From: Thermoplasmata archaeon
Lineage (GTDB): Archaea; Thermoplasmatota; Thermoplasmata; Lutacidiplasmatales; UBA184
Length of the DNA: 64,000 bases
Reading direction: 5' to 3'
Assembly: GCA_049300255.1 (NCBI GenBank)
Contig: JBAQJJ010000040.1
Coordinates: forward strand, 74,978-138,977
Positions within the stretch are counted from its first letter, which is position 1, and each line of letters begins with the position of its first letter. The position numbers and the translations under genes are program-made. A model generated the notes under the pieces. That model did not search any database. It was not told the DNA's origin and saw nothing but the letters and a program-made list of their open reading frames with translations. Shown here piece by piece: positions 37,053-46,771 of this stretch.

Positions 37053-38330
37053 GTGCGCGTCTACGTTGAATCCTACGGCTGCGCCCAAAACCAAGGAGAG
37101 GGTCGCGGCCTCACTCGTGACCTCGCCGCCGCGGGGCATTCGATCGCCGAGGACCCGTCCCATGCGGATGTCGGGGTGCTTGTGACGTGCGGGGTCATCG
37201 GACCCACCGAAATGCGAATGGTCCGTCGGTGGGAGGAACTCAGCCGGCGGGTCCCCCGCATGGTGGTTACAGGGTGTCTGGTACCCCTACGAACCGATCT
37301 ACTCCAAGGGCCCGGCCTCGACCGAACGACGTTTCTGCCGATCCGGGAGCAATCCCGCCTTTCGAGCATGCTCGCGGAATGGGCGTCCGACGATGCTGAG
37401 CCGGTTCGACCCACGCTCGACCCGACCCTGCCGATTCCCCCTGCCCTCTCCGTGGCCGAGGAGGTCGTCATCGCTCAGGGGTGTACGAGCCACTGCTCCT
37501 ACTGTTACAGCCGATTAGCGCGTGGGCGGCTCACGAGCGTGCCCATGGGGGAACTCTTGGAACGCGTGCGCGACGCGTTGGCGCGCGGTGCGAAAGAGAT
37601 CCGGTTGACCTCGCTCGATACTTCCTGTTGGGGAGAAGACCTCGCGGGCGAAGCACGACTTCCGGACCTCGTCACGGCCGTGGCGCAATTGAGCGGCGAT
37701 TTTCAGTTTCGGATTGGAATGATGAGCCCTCAAAGCCTGCGACGGATCGGCGACCGCCTGCTCGACGCGTTAGTAGGCGAGAAGGCCTTCCATTTCCTGC
37801 ACATCCCAATCCAGAGCGGGTCAGACCGGATCCTGCAGGAGATGCGACGGGGATACACCATCCGAGAGTTTCGGCAGTGGGTCGACCGCGCTCGCAGTCG
37901 ATTCCCAGATCTGATGCTTGCCACGGACGTCATTGTCGGCTTCCCGGGAGAAACCGAGGACGACTTCCGCGCGACGACGGAACTGATCGAGGAAGTGGAA
38001 CCGGAGATCGTCAACGTGACGCGTTTCTCCGCTCGGCCTTTGACTCCCGCCGCCCGCCTGCCCCGCCTTCCACCCCGCGTCGCGAAGCGACGGTCCCGCG
38101 AACTGACCGCCCTCCGCATGCGGGTGGCGCGACGTCGGTTCGAGCGATGGATCGGCTGGCACGGGTCCGCCCGCGTCGTGGAGTGGGGAGCGGAAGGCAG
38201 CTCCGTCGGACGCCTCCCGAACTATATTCCGGTAGTTCTCGAGGGCCGATATGCCTTGGGCACTGTCGTTCCGATTCGGATCGAAGGGGCACGCTCGACG
38301 TACCTGCTAGGCGCAGCCGTCGGTTCGTGA
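37053..38330 (+). CDS. MiaB-like tRNA methylthiotransferase (archaeal e-MtaB / CDKAL1-like, radical SAM).
   Basis: MTTase N-terminal 'VYVESYGCAQNQGEG'. Radical-SAM 'GCTSHCSYCYSRLARG'. C-terminal TRAM-like region. Confidence 0.7.
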   Translation: MRVYVESYGCAQNQGEGRGLTRDLAAAGHSIAEDPSHADVGVLVTCGVIGPTEMRMVRRWEELSRRVPRMVVTGCLVPLRTDLLQGPGLDRTTFLPIREQSRLSSMLAEWASDDAEPVRPTLDPTLPIPPALSVAEEVVIAQGCTSHCSYCYSRLARGRLTSVPMGELLERVRDALARGAKEIRLTSLDTSCWGEDLAGEARLPDLVTAVAQLSGDFQFRIGMMSPQSLRRIGDRLLDALVGEKAFHFLHIPIQSGSDRILQEMRRGYTIREFRQWVDRARSRFPDLMLATDVIVGFPGETEDDFRATTELIEEVEPEIVNVTRFSARPLTPAARLPRLPPRVAKRRSRELTALRMRVARRRFERWIGWHGSARVVEWGAEGSSVGRLPNYIPVVLEGRYALGTVVPIRIEGARSTYLLGAAVGS

Positions 38331-38529
38331 ACAAATCCCACCCCACCTACCCGGAGACGACGCACTCCGCGGGCTAGGGTTGCGGGGTCTCGAGACCTGT
38401 CGAACGACGCGGCCCCAAGAGGCCCCCGCGCCCTAAGGGGGTGCCGGCCCCAGCGGGGCGAATAAATACTCCCCCTCGCCCTAGTATGGACGACCCGGGG
38501 CTCCAACGAGCCGCGGAAATGAGCTGCTC

Positions 38530-39510
38530 GTGGCCGACTTGAACACGCTGATCGTCCCACTACTGATCATCGTCATCCTTGTCGCGGTGGCGCTGGGAGT
38601 GATGTTGTACGCCATCCGCCGCTTGAAGGCGCGGCGCGCCCATCTGCTCTCGCAGCTCCAAGACTCCCCCGACCTGGTCGAGGACCGGGCGTATAACCGA
38701 CTCCGTATGGCGAAGTCGGAAGTCGATATCCTGGAGCGACAGGGGACTGACGTCACTCGTGCACAGGCGCTCCTGCAATCCGCCCAGGAGGCGTTCGACC
38801 AGCACAATTATCCCAGTGCGCTATCGAGGGCGCAGTCGGCTCACGAGACCATGATCGCGTTACGCCAAGGTGCGGGATCGGGTGGATCCCGTTTACCGGA
38901 CCGATCTAGCTCCAGCCTGCGGCTGGATGATCCGGGGCTTTGGTCCGGCGCATCCTCTCTCCGACCCGCGGTCGATCTGACCCAATCCTCACCTGCGGCA
39001 GGCAGATTTGACGACTCCGGAGCGAGCCTGGGATTGCAGAACGCACCTCCCAGGAATCGCGCCGAATCGCGCTTTCAGATCTCGGTTCTGACGGATGAGA
39101 TCGCGCAGGCCCGCCAGACCCGCCCGAAGGATTCCGCGGTCGCCGAATCCGATGCGATCCGCGTCCAGGCCTCCGCGGCTTACGACCGAGCGGAGTACAC
39201 CGAGGCGCTCCGATTAGCTCTGAAAGCCCGGCGACGCATCGGCGGCCACCTCGAGACACTTCCTCCGCCCACCCCCACGGGACGCAGGGTCGCGGATGCG
39301 CTGGGCAGCGCGTCCAGCTCCGCGATGGATGTGGCGGTGCGGACGGCGGAATCAGTCCGATGCCCCCAGTGTGGCGCCCCGATGACCTCGGCAGACAAGT
39401 TCTGCCGAGGATGCGGCGCTCCGCGCTCAGAAGGGAACTGCCCTCGATGCCATCAGATCGCGCAGCCCGGCGACACCTTCTGCGGGAACTGCGGATCCGC
39501 GCTTCCGTAG
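38530..39510 (+). CDS. Membrane-anchored protein with a C-terminal double zinc ribbon.
   Basis: GTG start. N-terminal TM 'LIVPLLIIVILVAVALGVMLYAI'. C-terminal 'RCPQCGAPMTSADKFCRGCGAP...CPRCHQIAQPGDTFCGNCGS' gives two CxxC...CxxC ribbons. Confidence 0.4.
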   Translation: MADLNTLIVPLLIIVILVAVALGVMLYAIRRLKARRAHLLSQLQDSPDLVEDRAYNRLRMAKSEVDILERQGTDVTRAQALLQSAQEAFDQHNYPSALSRAQSAHETMIALRQGAGSGGSRLPDRSSSSLRLDDPGLWSGASSLRPAVDLTQSSPAAGRFDDSGASLGLQNAPPRNRAESRFQISVLTDEIAQARQTRPKDSAVAESDAIRVQASAAYDRAEYTEALRLALKARRRIGGHLETLPPPTPTGRRVADALGSASSSAMDVAVRTAESVRCPQCGAPMTSADKFCRGCGAPRSEGNCPRCHQIAQPGDTFCGNCGSALP

Positions 39511-39537
39511 GCGAGCCCGGCGGCCGGCTCGGGATAC

Positions 39538-40869
39538 TTAGGAAACGTACTGATCCAGCCGCCGTTGGGTGCGCGCTTCGTGGAGCAGGGCACTCTGCCG
39601 GAGCCACCGCTCGGCCGGTATCGCGAAGGCGGTGGCAATGCGTTGGGATAGATCTTGAAGGGTCGCCAGCCGTTCGGGGCGTTGCAGCAGCGCGGCCCGA
39701 ACGTGTTCCCGAACGTTCCAGACGCCGAGCGGTAGAATCTCCCCGGGATGGACCTCTCGGAGCACGAGTGTTCCCGCTTGGCGGCCACTCCGCAGCAACA
39801 TCTCCGAGGTGGCAAGACGGGCTGCGTAGTAACACCCTCCGATCGATGCGTAGGTGGTCCTTCCGTGGAATCCCTCGTGATCCCCGGCTATCACGATATT
39901 TTCCGAACTCGGATTCCACAGAGTGTTCGGATACCACGCCTCGATGGATTCGTAGCGATACGAACCCGGGAGGAAGACCAGGAGCCATCGATTGTCGAGT
40001 GCCGTATAGGAATAGACCAAGATCTCCGATAGTTCGGGCAAGTACCGAATCCGCTCCAGATTCGCCTTACTCAGAAGATCGTCGACCGCGGTGATGCTCC
40101 ATCGAGTCGGAACAAGCCGGCGTCGACCTCGACGACCCAAGGTTCCCGCACTGAACGCGCGCTGGATCCGGCTCACTCGGACACCCCGACCGTAGAGTTC
40201 GCCGACTGCGATACGAGCGTTCGCGTCCGTGTCGGAGGTGAGGCGCTCGAGATGCTGGTCCACGTGACGGACATCCAAGCGAACGCGCTCGATCGGGGCC
40301 GAAGGACCGTACGGGGGTAGAGTGTCGGAAAGTCCGATGTTGCCCCGAGGGGGCCGAGTGAAGCGCGCCTCGATTTCCACCGATTCTCGTGCAATGGCCA
40401 ATATCTGAAGATCGGAAAGCAACGGGATCGGTTTCTCGGCGTCCGTAACGCGGATGGGGTGGGTGCCCCGCACCAGTCCGGTCCGGAAGCCTACGACCTC
40501 CTGGACCGTTCGGCCAACCCAATCTTCCGGCGTGTCAAACAGGAGCGTGTCCCCGTGCAGGGGCGATACGAGCGGGCCGATGGAAACCTTCGGATAACCG
40601 AACCGCCCAACGAAGACCCCGGGAGGAGCGGTCCCTTCTAAGTCCACCCCTTCCAGCAGCGGCATCGTACGCGCAAAGGCCTGGTACTTTACGAGAATCG
40701 GGCAGACGGGCTTCCCGCAGAGCAACTGCGCCGATCGGCAGCGCAGACACATCGTAGGGTCCTCTCGAAGCCCGGGGATGCTCCAGGAGAGCGACTGAAT
40801 CGGATCGAGGCCAGGGATTGGAGGAGTTCCGCCGGTAACGGCCATACATCTTCCATACTTGGGAGCCAA
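39538..40869 (-). CDS. Nre-family archaeal DNA-repair-associated protein (COG1602-like).
   Basis: N-terminal 'MCLRCRSAQLLCGKPVCPIL' four-Cys finger, then an approximately 420-aa conserved body. Size and finger resemble NreA/NreB. Called from memory of the family, not a search. Confidence 0.4.
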   Translation of the reverse strand: MAPKYGRCMAVTGGTPPIPGLDPIQSLSWSIPGLREDPTMCLRCRSAQLLCGKPVCPILVKYQAFARTMPLLEGVDLEGTAPPGVFVGRFGYPKVSIGPLVSPLHGDTLLFDTPEDWVGRTVQEVVGFRTGLVRGTHPIRVTDAEKPIPLLSDLQILAIARESVEIEARFTRPPRGNIGLSDTLPPYGPSAPIERVRLDVRHVDQHLERLTSDTDANARIAVGELYGRGVRVSRIQRAFSAGTLGRRGRRRLVPTRWSITAVDDLLSKANLERIRYLPELSEILVYSYTALDNRWLLVFLPGSYRYESIEAWYPNTLWNPSSENIVIAGDHEGFHGRTTYASIGGCYYAARLATSEMLLRSGRQAGTLVLREVHPGEILPLGVWNVREHVRAALLQRPERLATLQDLSQRIATAFAIPAERWLRQSALLHEARTQRRLDQYVS

Positions 40870-40989
40870 TACTTACTGTCCCGGGAAGGGGATGAAACAC
40901 CCCGTCTCCCCTCTCGCGCACGCGTTTCGTTCGGCTGGCTTTACGTTTGTGCCGATGGGCGAATCTACCCCCAACCTGAGGTTCGTAGA

Positions 40990-42268
40990 CCTCCCGTTGT
41001 CGAAGACCCCTCAACTTGATGTGTGAAAGACGCCAACGAAGTCGACAACGACTTGTAAACACCGAGTATGACGCGGGGGGCAACCGATGCGGACAGTGCT
41101 GGTTCGGCTGGAGGTGGGAGTCGAGGACCGGCCTGCCCTCCTTCGCACAATTGAGGCGATGAACCGTGCCTCCGCCGCTATAAGCGAGGTCGCGTTCCGC
41201 GAAAGGGCCCGGCGCCGCACCCACCTCCACCATCTGACCTACCGCATGGTCCGTGAGAGATTCGGCCTCTCCGCCCAAATGGCGGTCCGGGCAATTGGCA
41301 AGGTCGGGGGCGCGTACGTGCGAGATTCTTCGCGCAGACCGACCTTCCGTCTTCGAGGCGCAGTTCCCTACGATCCCCGCATCCTGTCGTGGAAGGGAAA
41401 ACGTCGGCAGCGGGTTTCGCTGCTGACCCTCGACGGGAGACAGGAATTCCGCGTCCGCTGGTCCGAATACGGGCGGCACGCCGTGGCCCATCATCGCCTA
41501 CGAGGGGAGGCCGACCTGATCTACCGCGACAGCGCCTTCTATCTTGCGCTCGTCGTGAAAACGAAGGACCGGAAGCCCTACACTCCCAAGGGCGTACTAG
41601 GAGTTGATGTCGGCGTCGTGAACATCGCCACGGACTCAGACGGCGCGAACTACAAAGCTGATGGGATCGATCAGTTTCGCCTCCGTATGGACCGGCTACG
41701 CGGGCGACTCCAACGCGCCGGCACGAAGAGCGCGAAGCGGCACCTGAAGGCGCTCGGCCATCGAGAAGCCGGCTCCCGTCGGCAGATTAACCACTACGTC
41801 TCCAAGCAGATCGTCGCGCGGGCCGAAGGCACGGCGCGCGCGGTTGCCCTCGAAGACCTCGGGGGCATCCGCGAGCGGACCACGGTTCGGCGCTCCCAGC
41901 GGCGGCGACACTACTCTTGGAGCTTTCGCCAGTTGCGCGTCTTTGTGGAGTACAAGGCCGCGGCGAAGGGCGTCCCGGTTTTCATCGTGGATCCGCGGAA
42001 TACGTCGCTCACCTGCCCCTCATGCGGGGCCGTGGACAAGAAGAACCGACCGACGAGGGACGAATTCCGATGCGTGTCGTGCGGCCTCGCTGGGCCGGCC
42101 GACCGCATCGCCGCGATCAACATCGCGGCGAGGGCCGGAGTCGACCGGCCCATCGTGGCGGGAAGTGAAGAGGCGTGGGTTACACGTTTCCGACCTCAGC
42201 CACAAGCCACCGATTTAAGTCGGTGGTAGTTGACATATCGCGGAACGATGGTGACCTTGTTTTGACAT
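40990..42268 (+). mobile_element. IS200/IS605-family element carrying only tnpB (IS1341-like). Boundaries are approximate.
   Basis: TnpB ORF 41087–42229. There is a 9-bp inverted repeat CGTTGTCGA/TCGACAACG at about 40995–41053 upstream, a possible subterminal hairpin. tRNA-Pro begins at 42269. Confidence 0.35.
41087..42229 (+). CDS. tnpB: TnpB (OrfB) RNA-guided-endonuclease-family protein with intact RuvC-like D-E-D residues and zinc finger.
   Basis: RuvC-I 'GVDVGVVNIATDSDG'. RuvC-II 'AVALEDLGGIRE'. Zinc finger 'CPSCG...CVSCG'. RuvC-III 'ADRIAAINIAARAG'. 380 aa. Confidence 0.75.
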   Translation: MRTVLVRLEVGVEDRPALLRTIEAMNRASAAISEVAFRERARRRTHLHHLTYRMVRERFGLSAQMAVRAIGKVGGAYVRDSSRRPTFRLRGAVPYDPRILSWKGKRRQRVSLLTLDGRQEFRVRWSEYGRHAVAHHRLRGEADLIYRDSAFYLALVVKTKDRKPYTPKGVLGVDVGVVNIATDSDGANYKADGIDQFRLRMDRLRGRLQRAGTKSAKRHLKALGHREAGSRRQINHYVSKQIVARAEGTARAVALEDLGGIRERTTVRRSQRRRHYSWSFRQLRVFVEYKAAAKGVPVFIVDPRNTSLTCPSCGAVDKKNRPTRDEFRCVSCGLAGPADRIAAINIAARAGVDRPIVAGSEEAWVTRFRPQPQATDLSRW

Positions 42269-42343
42269 GGGACTGTGGGGTAGCTTGGTCCATCCTTCGG
42301 GGTTCGGGACTCCGAAACGCCAGTTCAAATCTGGCCAGTCCCA
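42269..42343 (+). tRNA. tRNA-Pro (anticodon CGG).
   Basis: Hand-folded. Acceptor GGGACTG/CAGTCCC (7 bp, perfect). T-arm GCCAG-TTCAAAT-CTGGC. Anticodon arm CGGGG-TTCGGGA-CTCCG with U33 and G37. Discriminator A, no encoded CCA. The D-arm region carries an extra nucleotide or irregular pairing (GGGT...ATCC/TCCT). Confidence 0.55.
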
Positions 42344-42437
42344 TCGCCCGACAACGCCTGCTGCGGCCTCGTCCCGGGACCGGGTGGCGGCCGCCCTCTC
42401 CGAGGCGCGTGTGTGACGCCACCCGAGAAGGCGTTCT

Positions 42438-43808
42438 TCAGACGGATTCCTCGATCTCCCCCGCGTGCGGAGTGCCTGCAAGTTGGTCGGCCATCTCCGC
42501 TACGACAGCAATGTACTGGTCGACGTCTCCGTCAGTGTGAGCGACCGATACCGTCCACTGCTCATCCGGTCCGTTGCCCGAAGGGATTAATCCTCGATTA
42601 AGGCAGAGGAACTGAAACAGGAGCGACCGGTCGGGATCGACCTCGAGGAAGCTTCGCCAATTCCGCACCGGCTGGTCGGCAAACAGGATGGCGCCTGACG
42701 GACCATCCGACGGCAGGAACCCCCGCACGTGTCGATCGTGAAAGATCTCCGCAAGTCCCTTCGCCAAGTGCTGGCTCAAGCGCGCGGACCGCTCCAGACC
42801 TTCTTCTGTCAGTACGTGTTCAAGGGTCGCCCGGCAAGCCGCAATCGAGATTGGATTTGCGTTGAACGTCCCGGCATGGGCGATCCGCTTGGGTCCCACG
42901 TTGTCGAGCAGCCCCTTCCGAGCTGCAATGGCGGAGAGCGGCGCGCCACAGGCGATCGACTTGCCCAGGAGTATGATGTCGGGGGCCACGCCAAATCGGC
43001 CCGCGGCTCCGTGCAGGTACTTGCCACCTGTCTTGATCTCATCGAAGATCAAGAGCGCCCCAACTTCCTGACAGAGCTCTCGTAGGCCCTCGAGAAATCC
43101 CGCCTCAGGGAGGACCAGCCCCATGTTCATGGCGATCGGCTCGAGGATTACCGCAGCGACATCGCCTCGATGCTCGTCCACGATCTTGCGCGTAGATTCC
43201 AAATCGTTGTACGGGGCCACCCGAGTCCGGTCGGCGACCTCCTTCAGAATCCCGGGTCCAGCGGGGACGGAGTTGGGACGCTGCGCGGGTCCGCTCGCAT
43301 CGGCGCGGGGCTTGACGCCGACCAGGAGAGTATCGTGCGACCCATGGTACCCCCCCTCGAATTTCACGACATATCGATGGCCTGTCACCGCGCGCGCAAA
43401 TCGGATCGCGTGGTGAGTCGCCTCGAGCCCGGTCGAACTGAATCGAAGCTGCCCCATCCCGAACCGCCGGCACAGCTTCTCCGCGACTTCGGGAGTGCCT
43501 TCCCACTCGTAGCCATAGACGTAGCCCCGCGCGAGCTGTTCTTGCAGCGCGCGCACGATCTTCGGATGGGCATGACCGCTGGCCAGCGCCCCGTAGGCCA
43601 TGTTGAAATCGAGATACGAATTCCCATCCGTATCCCAGAGATGGACCCCCTCCCCTCGTTGCGCGTAGAAGGGGTACGGTTCGAGAAATCGGTAATTGCT
43701 GTGTACTCCCAGAGGGGACCAGCTCCGCGCCCGTTCCCACAATCGCGCTGAGCCGGGGGTCCGACGCGCATATTCCTGTTGGGCGGCCAACAGCTTTGGA
43801 TCGGCCAT
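42438..43808 (-). CDS. Class-III PLP aminotransferase (glutamate-1-semialdehyde aminomutase-like / ω-transaminase).
   Basis: 'VHLWDTDGNSYLDFNMAYGALASGHAHP'. 'FEGGYHGSHD'. 'LIFDEIKTGGKYL'. 'PDIILLGKSIACGAPL' is the PLP-lysine region (EVKTG-like). Start at internal Met 43808. Confidence 0.65.
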   Translation of the reverse strand: MADPKLLAAQQEYARRTPGSARLWERARSWSPLGVHSNYRFLEPYPFYAQRGEGVHLWDTDGNSYLDFNMAYGALASGHAHPKIVRALQEQLARGYVYGYEWEGTPEVAEKLCRRFGMGQLRFSSTGLEATHHAIRFARAVTGHRYVVKFEGGYHGSHDTLLVGVKPRADASGPAQRPNSVPAGPGILKEVADRTRVAPYNDLESTRKIVDEHRGDVAAVILEPIAMNMGLVLPEAGFLEGLRELCQEVGALLIFDEIKTGGKYLHGAAGRFGVAPDIILLGKSIACGAPLSAIAARKGLLDNVGPKRIAHAGTFNANPISIAACRATLEHVLTEEGLERSARLSQHLAKGLAEIFHDRHVRGFLPSDGPSGAILFADQPVRNWRSFLEVDPDRSLLFQFLCLNRGLIPSGNGPDEQWTVSVAHTDGDVDQYIAVVAEMADQLAGTPHAGEIEESV

Positions 43809-43979
43809 GACCTGAACCTGGAGTCGACCTCGCTGCTCGACCGAACCGAGATGGCCGAGCCTGGCGACCCCGCCACCCGGCAACCGCTACATTAACCCTC
43901 GGGAAAAAAAGGCGACCCCGCCGACTTCGGCGTCGGCGACATCCTATATCTTCGAGCGCCTCGGACCGGACGGTTCTCG

Positions 43980-45434
43980 ATGGCTTCGGAATTGCCGGTT
44001 CTTCCTAACTTTGTCGATGGCCAATGGGTGAGCGCAGCGAATTGCGACCTCCTCGACGTTCCCGACCCCTCCTCGGGAGAGATTCTCGCGCGCGTGCCGC
44101 TATCGGGCTCCGAGGAGGTGGACCGGGCGGTGGCGGCCGCACGACACGCGTTCCCCTCGTGGCGAAATACGCCGGCTGCGGAGCGGGCACGACTCCTTGC
44201 CCGTGTCCGGGAATTGCTCGACCAACGCGCCGAAGATCTCGCCGCGAGCATTACCCTCGAAAACGGCAAGATATTGGAGGAAGCACGTGGCAGCGTACGG
44301 CGCGGGATCGAGGCGGTCGAGTTCGCGATCTCGGCTCCGACGCTTCTGCAAGGATCGCTTCTGCAGAACGTGTCCCCAGGAGTAGACGCAGAACTGTACC
44401 GGGAACCCGTCGGCGTCGCCGCGGGTATCACTCCGTTCAATTTTCCGGTCATGGTCCCTCTCTGGATGGCCCCGATCGCGATTGCGTGCGGGAACTGTTT
44501 CATCCTCAAACCTTCGGAGCGGGTTCCGATCTCCGCAGGCCTGTTGGGTCGATGCTTCTCGCAGGCCGGCCTGCCACCGGGGGTCTTCAACCTGATTCAT
44601 GGTGGCCGTGCGACGGTCGAAACCTTGCTCCACCATCCGCAGATCGACGCCATTGCCTTCGTCGGCTCGGCCCCCGTCGCGAGATCGGTCTACACGATCG
44701 CGGCGGCGGAAGGGAAGCGGGTGCTCGCCCTCGCCGGCGCGAAGAACTACTTGATCGTCCTACCGGATGCGGACCTCGCGCGGACCGTCGACGCGATCAT
44801 GTCAAGTGCGTTCGGCTCCGCCGGCGAACGGTGCCTGGCGGGGAGCGTGGTCGTAGCGGTCTCGTCGGTAGGGGAGCCGCTGGTCGAGGCGCTCACCGAG
44901 CGCATTCGGTCGCTCAAGTTGGGCAGCGGGCTTCGTTCCGACGTCGAGATGGGGCCGGTCATTCGCACCGACCATCGCGCCCGCGTTGAATCCTATATCG
45001 AAAAGGGGCAGGCCGAAGGCGCCCGGCTCGCCGCCCGTGGGACTTCTCCGAAGCCCGAGCAAAGCGGATTCTACGTCGCGCCAGCCCTATTCGACCATGT
45101 ACGGCCCGAAATGACGATCGCGCAAGAGGAGATCTTCGGACCCGTTCTGTCGGTGATCCGAGTCGCCTCGCTGGACGAGGCGATCGACGTGGCGAACCGT
45201 TCACGGTTTGGCAACGCCTCGGCCATCTTCACCCGCGATGGGGGGAGCGCCCGCGAATTTCGACAGCGCATCGAGGCAGGCATGGTGGGGATCAACATCG
45301 GCGTGCCAGCCCCCGCCGCCTACTTCCCGTTCGTGGGTTGGAAAGGCTCCGTCTACGGGGACTTGGCTGCGACCGGGCGCGATGCAATCTCCTTCTACAC
45401 GCGTCCGAAGACCGTGACGACGCGCTGGTTCTAG
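43980..45434 (+). CDS. Aldehyde dehydrogenase of the methylmalonate/malonate-semialdehyde dehydrogenase (MmsA-like) family.
   Basis: 'ITPFNFPVMVPLWMAPIAIACGNCFILKPSERVP' closely follows the MMSDH signature. 'GSAGERCLAGSVVV' is the catalytic Cys. 484 aa. Confidence 0.65.
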   Translation: MASELPVLPNFVDGQWVSAANCDLLDVPDPSSGEILARVPLSGSEEVDRAVAAARHAFPSWRNTPAAERARLLARVRELLDQRAEDLAASITLENGKILEEARGSVRRGIEAVEFAISAPTLLQGSLLQNVSPGVDAELYREPVGVAAGITPFNFPVMVPLWMAPIAIACGNCFILKPSERVPISAGLLGRCFSQAGLPPGVFNLIHGGRATVETLLHHPQIDAIAFVGSAPVARSVYTIAAAEGKRVLALAGAKNYLIVLPDADLARTVDAIMSSAFGSAGERCLAGSVVVAVSSVGEPLVEALTERIRSLKLGSGLRSDVEMGPVIRTDHRARVESYIEKGQAEGARLAARGTSPKPEQSGFYVAPALFDHVRPEMTIAQEEIFGPVLSVIRVASLDEAIDVANRSRFGNASAIFTRDGGSAREFRQRIEAGMVGINIGVPAPAAYFPFVGWKGSVYGDLAATGRDAISFYTRPKTVTTRWF

Positions 45435-46771
45435 CGCGCCGCCTCCACCTTCTCGTCAGCGACCTGGAGGGCTCGGTCGAGGACCTCCAGTCCGCGGTCG
45501 AGTTCCTCGCGCGTGATGATCAGCGGAGGAGCGAGAATCAGGTGCTGGACCCACGCAAACGCGTAAACGCCCTCCTTCATCATCGCGCGAGTGACCTCCT
45601 CGGTCACGAGCAGTCGGCCGGCGATTTTGTCGGCATCCGTGTTGAACGACGCTTTGGTCGCCCGGTCGCGGACCAGTTCGACAGCGGCGAACAGTCCCAA
45701 CCCTCGGACGTCCCCAACCGACGGGTGACGGGAGGCGATGTCTTGCAAACGACCGAGCATGTACTCCCCTTCGCGGCGCGATCGTTCGATGAGTCCCAAC
45801 CGGCGGTACTCCTCGATCGCGGCCACGCCCGGAGCGAGCGTGAGCGGGTGGGCTTCGTACGTGTGACCATGCGGAAAATATCGATCCCGGAACGCATCAT
45901 GGATCTCCGAAGTGGTCGCCGTGATTCCGAGGGGAGCGTACGCGCCGGTCACTCCCTTCGCCGTCGTCAATATGTCCGGAACGACCTGGTAGTGATCGAC
46001 CCCGAACCAGGCGCCCGTCCGACCCCAGCCGCTCATCACCTCATCGGCGATCAAGAGAACGTGGTGCTTCTGCGTGATTGCCCGGATCCGCGGAAGGTAC
46101 TCGGGGACGGGAACGAGCACGCCATTCGTACCGACAATCGGCTCGACGATCATCGCGGCGACGTCGCCCTCCGTCTCAATCTGCTCGTCCACGTACTCGG
46201 CACACTCGACGTGGCAGGAGGGATACGTCAGCCCGAACGGGCACCGATAGCAATAGCAGTCCGGCGCGAAGACGGTGCCCGAAACTCGCTGATGGGGCTC
46301 GATCTCCTTCCGTCGGAAATCACCCGTGACGGAGATCGACGCTGCGGTGGCTCCGTGATACGAATGGGGGCGGGCAAGGACCTTCGACCGGCCGGTCACG
46401 AGCCGAGCGATCTTGAGCGCCGCCTCGTTGGCCTCGGTGCCGGACGTGCTGAAGAAATAGCGGCGTAACCCGGCCGGCATGACCTGGTCGAGGGCGGCAC
46501 TGAGTTGCGCGCGGACTTCCGTCGCGAATCCGGGCGCGACGAATGGGAGCGACTGTGCTTGGGCCACAATCGCGTTCTGGACGGCCTTATTGCCGTGTCC
46601 CAGGTTCGAGGCCATCAACTGGGAAGCAAAGTCGAGATAGCCGCGGCCCTGGCTATCCCAGAAGGTCGATCCTTCGGCCCGCGTGATCAGGAGGGGTTCC
46701 CATCCTCCCTGGCGACGCCAGGTCACATAGGTGGACTCGACTACCTTCCGTCGCGCGGCCTCAAGGTCCAC
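45431..46771 (-). CDS. Class-III PLP aminotransferase (ω-amino acid:pyruvate / GABA-type transaminase).
   Basis: 'LLIADEVMSGWGRTGAWFGVDHYQVVPDILTTAKG'. 'FSTSGTEANEAALKIAR'. 446 aa. Confidence 0.7.
   Translation of the reverse strand: MDLEAARRKVVESTYVTWRRQGGWEPLLITRAEGSTFWDSQGRGYLDFASQLMASNLGHGNKAVQNAIVAQAQSLPFVAPGFATEVRAQLSAALDQVMPAGLRRYFFSTSGTEANEAALKIARLVTGRSKVLARPHSYHGATAASISVTGDFRRKEIEPHQRVSGTVFAPDCYCYRCPFGLTYPSCHVECAEYVDEQIETEGDVAAMIVEPIVGTNGVLVPVPEYLPRIRAITQKHHVLLIADEVMSGWGRTGAWFGVDHYQVVPDILTTAKGVTGAYAPLGITATTSEIHDAFRDRYFPHGHTYEAHPLTLAPGVAAIEEYRRLGLIERSRREGEYMLGRLQDIASRHPSVGDVRGLGLFAAVELVRDRATKASFNTDADKIAGRLLVTEEVTRAMMKEGVYAFAWVQHLILAPPLIITREELDRGLEVLDRALQVADEKVEAAR

Follow-up and report, generated by a model that had tools for sequence, protein, structure and literature searches.

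Within the window, by which we mean the whole 64,000-nucleotide stretch of Thermoplasmata archaeon DNA that was analysed, a solo tnpB gene lies between recognisable transposon ends close upstream of a tRNA-Pro(CGG) gene. The features at this locus, all on the forward strand, and the evidence that defines each of them are as follows.

40982 to 40986, + strand: TAM remnant TTCGT (TTCAT in the empty site of sister genome G011; family consensus TCA[CT])
40987 to 41086, + strand: left end (LE) of the element, 100 nt, adjoining the tnpB start (alignment to the left ends of relatives)
40996 to 41051, + strand: degenerate LE hairpin (ssDNA folds and LE alignment)
41087 to 42229, + strand: tnpB open reading frame, 380 aa, P0001 (Pfam, PDB alignments, family alignment)
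42099 to 42234, + strand: omega-RNA 3' scaffold, 135 nt as modelled, five helices (RNAalifold, covariance model R1)
42179 to 42183, + strand: +1 nt indel relative to all relatives (protein, nucleotide and RNA alignments)
42206 to 42227, + strand: subterminal hairpin of the right end (RE), which is the last omega-RNA stem, CCACCGA / TCGGTGG with loop TTTAAG (fold and covariation)
42230 to 42234, + strand: TTGAC, terminus of RE and right cleavage site (conservation across more than 30 loci)
42230 to 42240, + strand: hybrid box, TTGAC joined to ATATCG, replacing TTCAT joined to ATATCG (comparison with relatives)
42235 to 42250, + strand: guide-encoding flank, 16 nt, or 20 nt if taken to 42254 (host DNA, formerly the right half of the empty site)
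42269 to 42343, + strand: tRNA-Pro(CGG), intact (ARAGORN; Rfam RF00005, 50.9 bits)

Evaluating the protein, we found a Pfam match to Cas12f1-like_TNB (PF07282) at 6.9e-19, together with a weak OrfB_IS605 match (PF01385) that at 21 bits lies under the cut-off. The RuvC residues D174, E256 and D339 and the zinc-finger cysteines C310, C313, C329 and C332 are invariant in the 28 family members aligned, and they align with their RuvC and zinc-finger counterparts in Cas12f/TnpB chains of solved structure, while across 75 near-invariant family columns the protein deviates at just 2. The first-pass annotation, made from the sequence alone, had described a solo 380-aa TnpB with an intact D/E/D triad, a CxxC finger and no tnpA partner, and this description is borne out by the reading frame, the Pfam match, the 28-member alignment (in which the RuvC-III Asp aligns) and the lack of any Y1_Tnp match. 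From the intact motifs we infer a protein that would be an active RNA-guided nuclease. Its dN/dS against the nearest relatives is 0.146-0.175, a ratio of about 0.15 that covers the whole path between two elements, much of it maybe predating the stranding that we argue for below, and that is therefore not proof of present maintenance. The +1 nt indel frameshifts the last 16 codons and so gives the tail VTRFRPQPQATDLSRW in place of the family tail GHVSDLSYKPPISIGGR; its site falls in an unpaired loop of the RNA scaffold, and the frameshift could be a first step of decay or could impair the protein.

We set the ends of the element from more than 80 related loci and from the empty site in G011. 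A metagenome scan with alignment A1 yielded the 80 loci used, and a single-protein scan of genome contigs yielded one locus only (L051). DNA common to the relatives runs only from the start of the open reading frame to ...GTTGAC. The G011 order is uninterrupted, from Nre through GGTTCAT and directly adjoining ATATCGCGGAACG to tRNA-Pro, such that its empty site reads TTCAT followed immediately by ATATCGCGG, where the window reads TTCGT, the element from LE to RE, and then ATATCGCGG; homology to G011 ends at 40986 (the BLAST alignment ends at 40913, and the remainder was judged by eye). The element so delimited spans 40987 to 42234 (1,248 bp), belongs to the IS200/IS605 family, and by the comparison with G011, whose empty site is seamless, was inserted 3' of a short TAM without target-site duplication. 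Its entry would have followed the usual route of the family, 3' of a TCAT TAM and without target duplication. Around tRNA-Pro(CGG) the site is empty in 29 of the 29 genus relatives examined, a distribution that shows one past insertion and not current mobility, and the junctions are found with 100% identity in a Logan contig and in an NCBI MAG, two records that may come from the same or related samples.

The 3' end of tnpB overlaps a structured RNA that coincides with RE and ends at the transposon boundary. The RNAalifold consensus predicts 44 pairs, with compensatory changes in 18, and covariance model R1 matches the window over its full length at 143.4 bits; of its 86 matches across the family loci to which it was applied, almost every one falls at the tnpB 3' end, with a second match elsewhere in a few of these loci, and in this genome it matches the locus alone. 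Paired cells reach 90.9% as against 68.8% in shuffles, two-sided changes occur in 34 of 35 pairs, and the covariation score of 0.543 is attained by none of 500 shuffles, which give 0.166, and sliding the partners yields 0.082 at most, all read with the caveat that the alignment used in this test (A4) is fitted to the model. Helix 4 shows an A-U to G-C double change in the window itself, the single-sequence fold of the scaffold is -101 kcal/mol (z = -5.4), and over codons 301-364, the final 64 of the alignment, synonymous divergence is about 3-fold lower. An Rfam search over 38000-46000 at E <= 1 returned the tRNA only and no omega-RNA family. The 135-nt scaffold is complete and probably reaches 5' to about 42060, and these features together are consistent with an omega-RNA that would be expressed from the 3' end of the open reading frame into the flank, as had been proposed at first sight. 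Its last stem, the RE hairpin, is intact (ssDNA fold z = -3.4) and shows covariation among family members, 9 pairs occurring as CG, GC, AU and UA. Beyond the terminal TTGAC, inside which the tnpB stop codon TGA of the relatives falls, the sequence is unrelated between loci.

At its 3' end the scaffold would run into host DNA, and the guide that it would thereby acquire (42235 to about 42250) spells what follows the TAM in the empty site: the guide flank matches G011 immediately 3' of its TTCAT, and the predicted target with the ancestral TAM is TTCAT-ATATCGCGGAACGATG. This layout would be the standard TnpB arrangement for cutting the vacated site and being copied back. Directly 5' of the guide's own flank there is no TAM: the sequence is TTGAC, not TCAY. 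Among the matches listed, the only exact match to the guide in the genome is its own locus, and none of the listed close matches is preceded by a TAM. A 10-nt perfect complement between 41193-41202 and 42238-42247 was considered and set aside as too short for targeting, without a TAM, and of a length that GC-rich DNA would produce by chance.

The left side of the element is less well preserved than this right side. The LE, which we aligned to those of L051, L055, L015 and L059 and of the full elements L135-L138, L003, L053 and L004, is a decayed, tnpA-deleted form of the family LE, and it carries a TATA-like GTAAACA about 30 nt upstream of the tnpB ATG. The family hairpin has two tiers, of which the window retains the outer 9-bp stem (40996-41004 / 41043-41051) and has lost the 3' arm of the inner 8-bp hairpin (CCCCCCAA/TTGGGGGG). 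As ssDNA, the window's LE folds at -8.3 kcal/mol (z = -1.06), with 27 of 200 shuffles folding as well, whereas the relatives' left ends fold at -15.5 to -16.2 kcal/mol (z = -3.1 to -4.1). A 9-bp inverted repeat had been noticed upstream of tnpB as a possible left-end hairpin; it does lie in the LE and is the outer tier, and it forms no convincing hairpin. L051, at 83% the nearest copy, sits at another genomic site and its LE is similarly weak, so that elements with such left ends may have moved, or both copies may have decayed independently. At the adjoining TAM, the left-end junctions of 24 relatives, 17 of them solo and 7 full-length, read TCAC or TCAT without exception, and the window alone has a G where these have A (an A-to-G change).

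No tnpA is present at the locus, and the Y1_Tnp profile (PF01797) found no match in this MAG (96% complete, 53 contigs), while the positive controls were found in 6 of 14 genomes. Among the relatives, four that we fetched (L135-L138, 75-79% identity) have a called, divergently oriented Y1_Tnp gene 37 nt upstream of tnpB, and in L003, L052, L053 and L004 a tnpA could be read directly in the DNA (YHIVWCPKYRK motif). Since relatives have a TnpA and neither the locus nor the assembled genome does, we regard the element as a defective derivative and not as an autonomous member of its family. The element, its LE and its RE (blastn, nhmmer) and the RNA covariance model each match this locus only, making it single-copy in this genome; the first look at the sequence had envisaged further copies that would define the ends, and although this genome contains none, comparison with other genomes makes the ends clearly recognisable.

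We interpret 40987 to 42234, with a probability of roughly 80%, as a single tnpA-less (IS1341-like, tnpB only) copy of an IS200/IS605-family insertion sequence that is probably immobile. It looks stranded on the combined grounds of the missing transposase in the assembly, the broken LE hairpin, the mutated TAM and the single copy, and from these we would expect its mobility to have been lost. That it is instead a still mobile, non-autonomous tnpB element served in trans by a TnpA from an unassembled copy, a plasmid or a virus is, in our estimate, very unlikely. Such a supply would fit the intact RE hairpin and terminus, the LE of L051, which is of this type and lies at a different site in a different genome, and the report (PMC10691335) that solo TnpBs flanked by IS200/IS605-like ends can move, presumably by mobilisation in trans; the MAG is also incomplete, which leaves room for a missing TnpA source, and a tnpA or extra copies could reside in unassembled repeats or an unbinned plasmid or virus. 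Against it stand the genome without a Y1_Tnp match, the single copy, an inner LE hairpin destroyed to the point that the fold is no better than that of shuffles, and a TAM mutated at a position invariant in the 24 other junctions.

The neighbouring tRNA bears on the remaining alternatives. The gene, accepted by both ARAGORN and Rfam, begins at 42269, and the TAG stop of tnpB ends at 42229, confirming the 39-nt spacing first noted. That annotation had placed the insertion directly 5' of the tRNA, which is more exactly put, from G011 and the 29 relatives, as inside the tRNA's TATA-like promoter box: a TCA[AT]ATA box lies about 41 to 33 nt upstream of tRNA-Pro(CGG) in nearly all 29 relatives checked, other tRNA genes of the genome have A/T boxes at the same distance, and the insertion point falls within the box, with the TAM as its left half. 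Because the TAM that was hit is the left half of this box, the element now separates TTCGT (40982-86) from ATATCGCGG (42235 onward). By its position the box would act as the promoter of tRNA-Pro(CGG), and the element may influence transcription of the tRNA; its terminal TTGAC partly rebuilds the split box. A TTGACAT repeat (42230-36 and 42262-68) was considered as a duplication, for which no support was seen in the relatives. It had also been suggested that the guide is, or enters, the tRNA 5' region, making the nuclease tRNA-directed, and that a D-arm irregularity in the tRNA is a scar of the insertion; we consider this extremely improbable. What speaks for a tRNA-directed guide is the proximity of stop codon and tRNA, whereas RE stops at 42234, so that a guide of 16-20 nt ends at least 14 nt before the tRNA, and one of 16 nt ends 18 nt before it. 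The scar fails on comparison, since the 75-nt tRNA is identical in 3 relatives without the element at the site (G011, G019 and G067) and in the 26 others a single base of the variable loop, position 48, is different, and its G-rich D stem is the form common to this tRNA across the genus.

Two further readings would link expression of the tRNA to the element. The element may have been kept since the tRNA now relies on it for expression, through the RE half-box or through read-through; in the read-through variant, an RNase P cut at the tRNA 5' end would also set the omega-RNA 3' end and yield an omega-RNA-tRNA dicistron. We think this unlikely. It is in keeping with an insertion exactly inside the conserved TCA[AT]ATA box, with an RE, scaffold and open reading frame that are well kept while the LE decays, and with the mere 34 nt that separate RE from the tRNA on the same strand, and it can draw on reports that the 5' end of the omega-RNA arises when TnpB processes the mRNA that encodes it (PMC10278001, which does not extend to 3'-end formation) and that archaeal IS1341-type tnpB genes express sense-overlapping omega-RNAs (work cited in PMC12558985). 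Yet the hybrid box keeps ATAT at the usual distance and resembles TCATATGG of tRNA-Leu(CAG), such that the tRNA may keep its own promoter; a TTTT run (42260-42263) could end read-through ahead of the tRNA; for the promoter roughly the final 10 nt of the element would suffice, which leaves the intact 1.1-kb open reading frame unexplained; and the genome has tRNA-Pro(GGG) and an intron-bearing tRNA-Pro(UGG), with which the CGG isoacceptor may be dispensable. Quite unlikely, in turn, is the fuller version in which the stranded element has become part of a tRNA expression unit, combining the RE half-box, co-transcription and RNase P trimming of the omega-RNA 3' end. If true, engineered tRNA-guide RNA arrays would have in it a natural equivalent, and the host would have a reason to retain RE and the open reading frame.

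As an insertion sequence, the element is of an ordinary kind, common in archaea. Like IS200/IS605 elements (IS1341-type and IS605-type), it encodes a TnpB that has the RuvC D/E/D triad and a C4 zinc finger, it sits 3' of a short TAM with the target not duplicated, and its omega-RNA scaffold overlaps the 3' end of tnpB and continues into the flanking DNA. Such elements carry subterminal hairpins at both ends in place of terminal inverted repeats; here the RE hairpin is intact and the LE keeps only its outer stem. The relatives nearest to it, at 75-80% identity, are complete IS605-type elements that have a Y1 TnpA, with tnpA and tnpB divergent; unlike these, the window's copy has its tnpA deleted with none in the genome, a decayed inner LE hairpin, the TAM TCGT, a single copy and 16 frameshifted C-terminal residues. 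ISDra2 TnpB (PDB 8exa, 8h1j; TAM TTGAT) and AmaTnpB (TAM TCAC, PMC10278001) have the same domain order and catalytic motifs (phmmer 3e-6 to 8exa over residues 163-352, with other Cas12f/TnpB chains matching better, 9nzq at 1e-19), the family TAM TCA[CT] is close to that of AmaTnpB, and in both systems, as here, the guide begins right after RE; the window's TnpB differs from them in its archaeal (Thermoplasmata) lineage, with distant sequence similarity only, and in an omega-RNA without an Rfam family match. The arrangement also recalls TldR as described in PMC10705468, in that a TnpB-derived protein and an adjacent guide RNA lie near a promoter without a transposase. TldRs, however, are nuclease-dead repressors, whereas the present protein retains its catalytic D/E/D, among the matches listed the guide has its own flank as the single exact one, with TTGAC and not TCAY 5' of it, and the arrangement is confined to one lineage and not conserved; close TnpB homologues occur in only 3 of 40 related genomes, at other sites.

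TnpB has been reported in 63% of archaeal genomes, many of them with solo copies (PMC10691335). With solo TnpBs in IS200/IS605-like ends so common in archaea, this element matters little alone. Its analysis does define the ends, the TAM TCA[CT], an empty site and a covariation-backed omega-RNA model for a Thermoplasmata TnpB clade without an Rfam family, and the TAM and scaffold may prove useful for mining compact archaeal TnpBs. The locus would further illustrate stranding as a stepwise process, in which tnpA is deleted and the LE hairpin and TAM have decayed while the nuclease and guide scaffold are still intact. For the biology of the clade, it means that the TAM can coincide with an archaeal TATA-like box, so that an insertion can split a promoter and yet partly rebuild it.

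We assessed the locus in the archaeal MAG whose contig C40 includes the window (2.07 Mb in 53 contigs, 62% GC, 96% complete); those homologues that have named records all belong to 'Thermoplasmata archaeon'. The features are as follows.

Upstream of the element, ending at 40869, minus strand: archaeal Nre gene
40987-42234: IS200/IS605-family element
41087-42229, plus strand: tnpB ORF, 380 aa (P0001)
42235-42250/54: predicted guide, 16-20 nt of host DNA directly after 42234
42269-42343: tRNA-Pro(CGG), called by ARAGORN and Rfam (50.9 bits; gathering score 29)
Downstream of the element: class-III aminotransferase

The first-pass annotation had looked to further copies for the element's ends; the element, its left end (LE), its right end (RE) and the RNA model each match this locus only in the genome, and the ends were defined from relatives' loci instead. 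Copies in two related genomes (G005, G002) align with the window only from ~41085 to 42234 (BLAST), and in all copies the RE consists of a hairpin and then T[AC][GA]TTGAC, beyond which similarity ends, placing the terminus at 42234. Upstream of the ATG, the window aligns to the tnpB-only relatives L051, L055, L015 and L059, whose LE starts immediately 3' of TTCAT or TTCAC, and the window LE starts at 40987, preceded by TTCGT. [quoted passage not shown] A chimeric assembly junction at the element is unlikely, since 5.9-7.1 kb around the locus are 100% identical in Logan assembly SRR28041794 and NCBI MAG GCA_049279275.1, both of which may share a sample, or related samples, with the window's MAG.

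Evaluating the protein, we found that the complete D/E/D triad and four-cysteine finger read earlier from the sequence hold, with D174, E256, D339, C310, C313, C329 and C332 invariant across the 28-member family alignment. Pfam matched P0001 to Cas12f1-like_TNB (6.9e-19), with OrfB_IS605 below threshold, and phmmer against the PDB matched chains of Cas12f and TnpB at E-values as low as 1e-19, aligning their RuvC-I, RuvC-II and RuvC-III motifs to GVDVG, ALEDL and PADRIAAINIA (the RuvC-III aspartate, flagged as possibly misaligned, is in register) and their zinc ribbon to CPSC and CVSC. P0001 deviates at 2 of 75 near-invariant family columns (F230S, I238V), which is typical for the family, and dN/dS over the whole tnpB is 0.15-0.17 between the window and its nearest copies. 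Its one anomaly is the tail, which after W364 reads VTRFRPQPQATDLSRW, where all close relatives align GHVSDLSYKPPISIGGR instead, the cause being a +1-nt indel near 42179-42183; the relatives stop at TGA within the terminal GTTGAC and the window's shifted frame at a TAG 5 bases earlier. This frameshift would be tolerable, because the altered tail lies beyond the last residue aligning to ISDra2 TnpB (phmmer) and the C-terminal tail is variable among more distant family members. The nuclease is predicted to be intact.

For the TnpB guide RNA (omega-RNA), no Rfam family matches the region, and RNAalifold of 15 diverse copies gave a multi-helix scaffold over the final ~180 nt of the element, with compensatory changes at 18 of its 44 pairs. 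Searched against the family loci, our covariance model of the 3' scaffold (R1; last 135 nt, 35 pairs) matched 86 times, in nearly every case at the tnpB 3' end; in this covariance search, of the kind that had been suggested, the window ranks among the best, aligning to the whole model at 143.4 bits. Across 84 distinct sequences, in an alignment whose fitting to R1 somewhat inflates pairing while the margin stays large, standard pairs fill 90.9% of cells versus 68.8% in shuffles, two-sided changes occur at 34 of the 35 pairs, and the covariation score is 0.543 (shuffles 0.166, 0 of 500 reaching 0.543; slid partners at most 0.082). In the window, helix 4 carries an A-U to G-C double substitution and the +1 indel lies within a loop that the scaffold leaves unpaired. 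Against L051, dS falls ~3-fold, from 0.86 over the first 300 codons to 0.26 over the final 64 that align (301-364), as expected where a functional RNA or DNA element overlaps the gene. Expression of omega-RNA is known for archaeal IS1341-type genes, as cited in PMC12558985, and the guide-RNA scaffold here appears intact.

A few family loci have a second R1 match elsewhere than the tnpB 3' end (L069:3573-3708, L074:403-513, L100:287-428), which could be stand-alone omega-RNA or RE copies, or neighbouring elements. Within G005, tnpB copies L003 (C19) and L015 (C13) are diverged over codons 1-300 (dS 0.64, dN 0.29) and near-identical over the last 62 aligned codons (dS 0.06, dN 0), which suggests that the omega-RNA/RE module recombined or was gene-converted between them.

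Mobility was assessed against relatives that retain a transposase. All four loci at 75-79% identity whose contigs were fetched (L135-L138) have an annotated divergent Y1_Tnp gene of 153-156 aa, 37 nt 5' of tnpB, and the gene was also read directly in the DNA of L003, L052, L053 and L004 (YHIVWCPKYRK motif). The LE of tnpA-bearing relatives is (T/G)TCAT followed by AATCTCACGCGGGCGGAGA-CCCCCCAACTTGTTGGGGGG-AGGAAGCCCGCC, a two-tier hairpin, and 17 further solo copies have TCAC or TCAT at the junction, ~20 nt 5' of the hairpin, which gives TCA[CT] as the family TAM, a motif similar to AmaTnpB's reported TCAC (PMC10278001). The window LE follows the family consensus, but the 3' arm of its inner hairpin is lost (TTGGGGGG to roughly TGTGTGAA). 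The 9-bp inverted repeat proposed as a left-end hairpin is the outer stem, the only one surviving. Folded as ssDNA, the LE reaches -8.3 kcal/mol (z = -1.06), whereas intact relatives reach about -16 kcal/mol with z between -3.1 and -4.1; at the RE the hairpin is preserved (z = -3.4). In the window TAM, G replaces an A invariant in 24 other junctions. The reported lack of a tnpA partner extends to the whole 96%-complete MAG, in which no Y1 transposase was detectable. Because the LE hairpin is broken, the TAM mutated, the transposase absent and the copy single, the element is best read as a stranded, non-autonomous copy whose transposition apparatus appears lost or decayed, a reading tempered by the incompleteness of the MAG and by L051, which likewise has a weak LE at another site.

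A second, distant TnpB-like frame lies at G000:C14:84642-85055 in the window's genome (L002; 34% identity over residues 212-349), in a 420-aa open frame with a weak nhmmer match to the RE alignment (E 0.0011). TnpB load varies widely among relatives, with at least 33 matches in G026 and 14 in G033 (same order and same class) versus 0-7 in genomes of the window's genus.

The tRNA call and the 39-nt gap from the tnpB stop codon both stood, whereas the D-arm irregularity taken for an insertion scar did not: the 75-nt tRNA-Pro(CGG) is identical in G011, G019 and G067, and 26 further members of the genus depart from it at a single base, variable-loop position 48. No relative in either group carries the element here, which makes the D-arm ancestral. 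In nearly all relatives checked, TCA[AT]ATA stands ~41 to 33 nt 5' of the tRNA, where an archaeal TATA box would be expected if the leader is short, and A/T boxes lie at equal distance from other tRNA genes in the window's genome. The insertion point, between TTCAT and ATATCG, is inside this box, and the TTGAC terminus abutting ATATCG would form a weaker hybrid putative promoter box. The tRNA may now be transcribed from that box or by read-through, or less well than before the insertion. Two further proline tRNAs in the genome are tRNA-Pro(GGG) and tRNA-Pro(UGG), the second of which bears an intron; it (contig C49, ~75168-75268, outside the window) was read by eye, escapes ARAGORN even when introns are permitted, and has a D-loop apparently interrupted by a ~34-nt insert that appears to be an intron at a non-canonical position. 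Directly 5' of tRNA-Pro(CGG), the 12 nt at 42257-42268 read TTGTTTTGACAT, where G011 is GC-rich; read-through from the element could end at their TTTT run, a possible archaeal terminator, and the TTGACAT before the tRNA repeats the RE/flank junction 42230-42236.

With the RE at 42234, the guide does not run into, or constitute, the tRNA 5' region as had been proposed, its predicted end falling at least 14 nt short of the tRNA. Joined to the TAM, the guide sequence would restore the uninterrupted site, in keeping with the established model of TnpB homing (bioRxiv 10.1101/2023.11.20.567912; PMC8612924). Where the element now sits, TTGAC rather than TCAY stands 5' of the guide match, which would protect the locus against self-cleavage, and no TAM-flanked guide match elsewhere in the genome was seen among the matches listed. 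A 10-nt perfect reverse complement joins 41193-41202 (tnpB coding) and 42238-42247 (guide-encoding flank), and the omega-RNA MFE fold pairs the guide region with 42061-42072; the complementarity to tnpB is probably chance, although for AmaTnpB an mRNA region inhibiting cleavage in cis is described in PMC10278001.

Solo TnpBs in IS200/IS605-like ends are well documented (PMC10691335), and this locus is an ordinary IS200/IS605-family tnpB element that lies within the putative promoter box of a tRNA gene and has left the tRNA itself unharmed.
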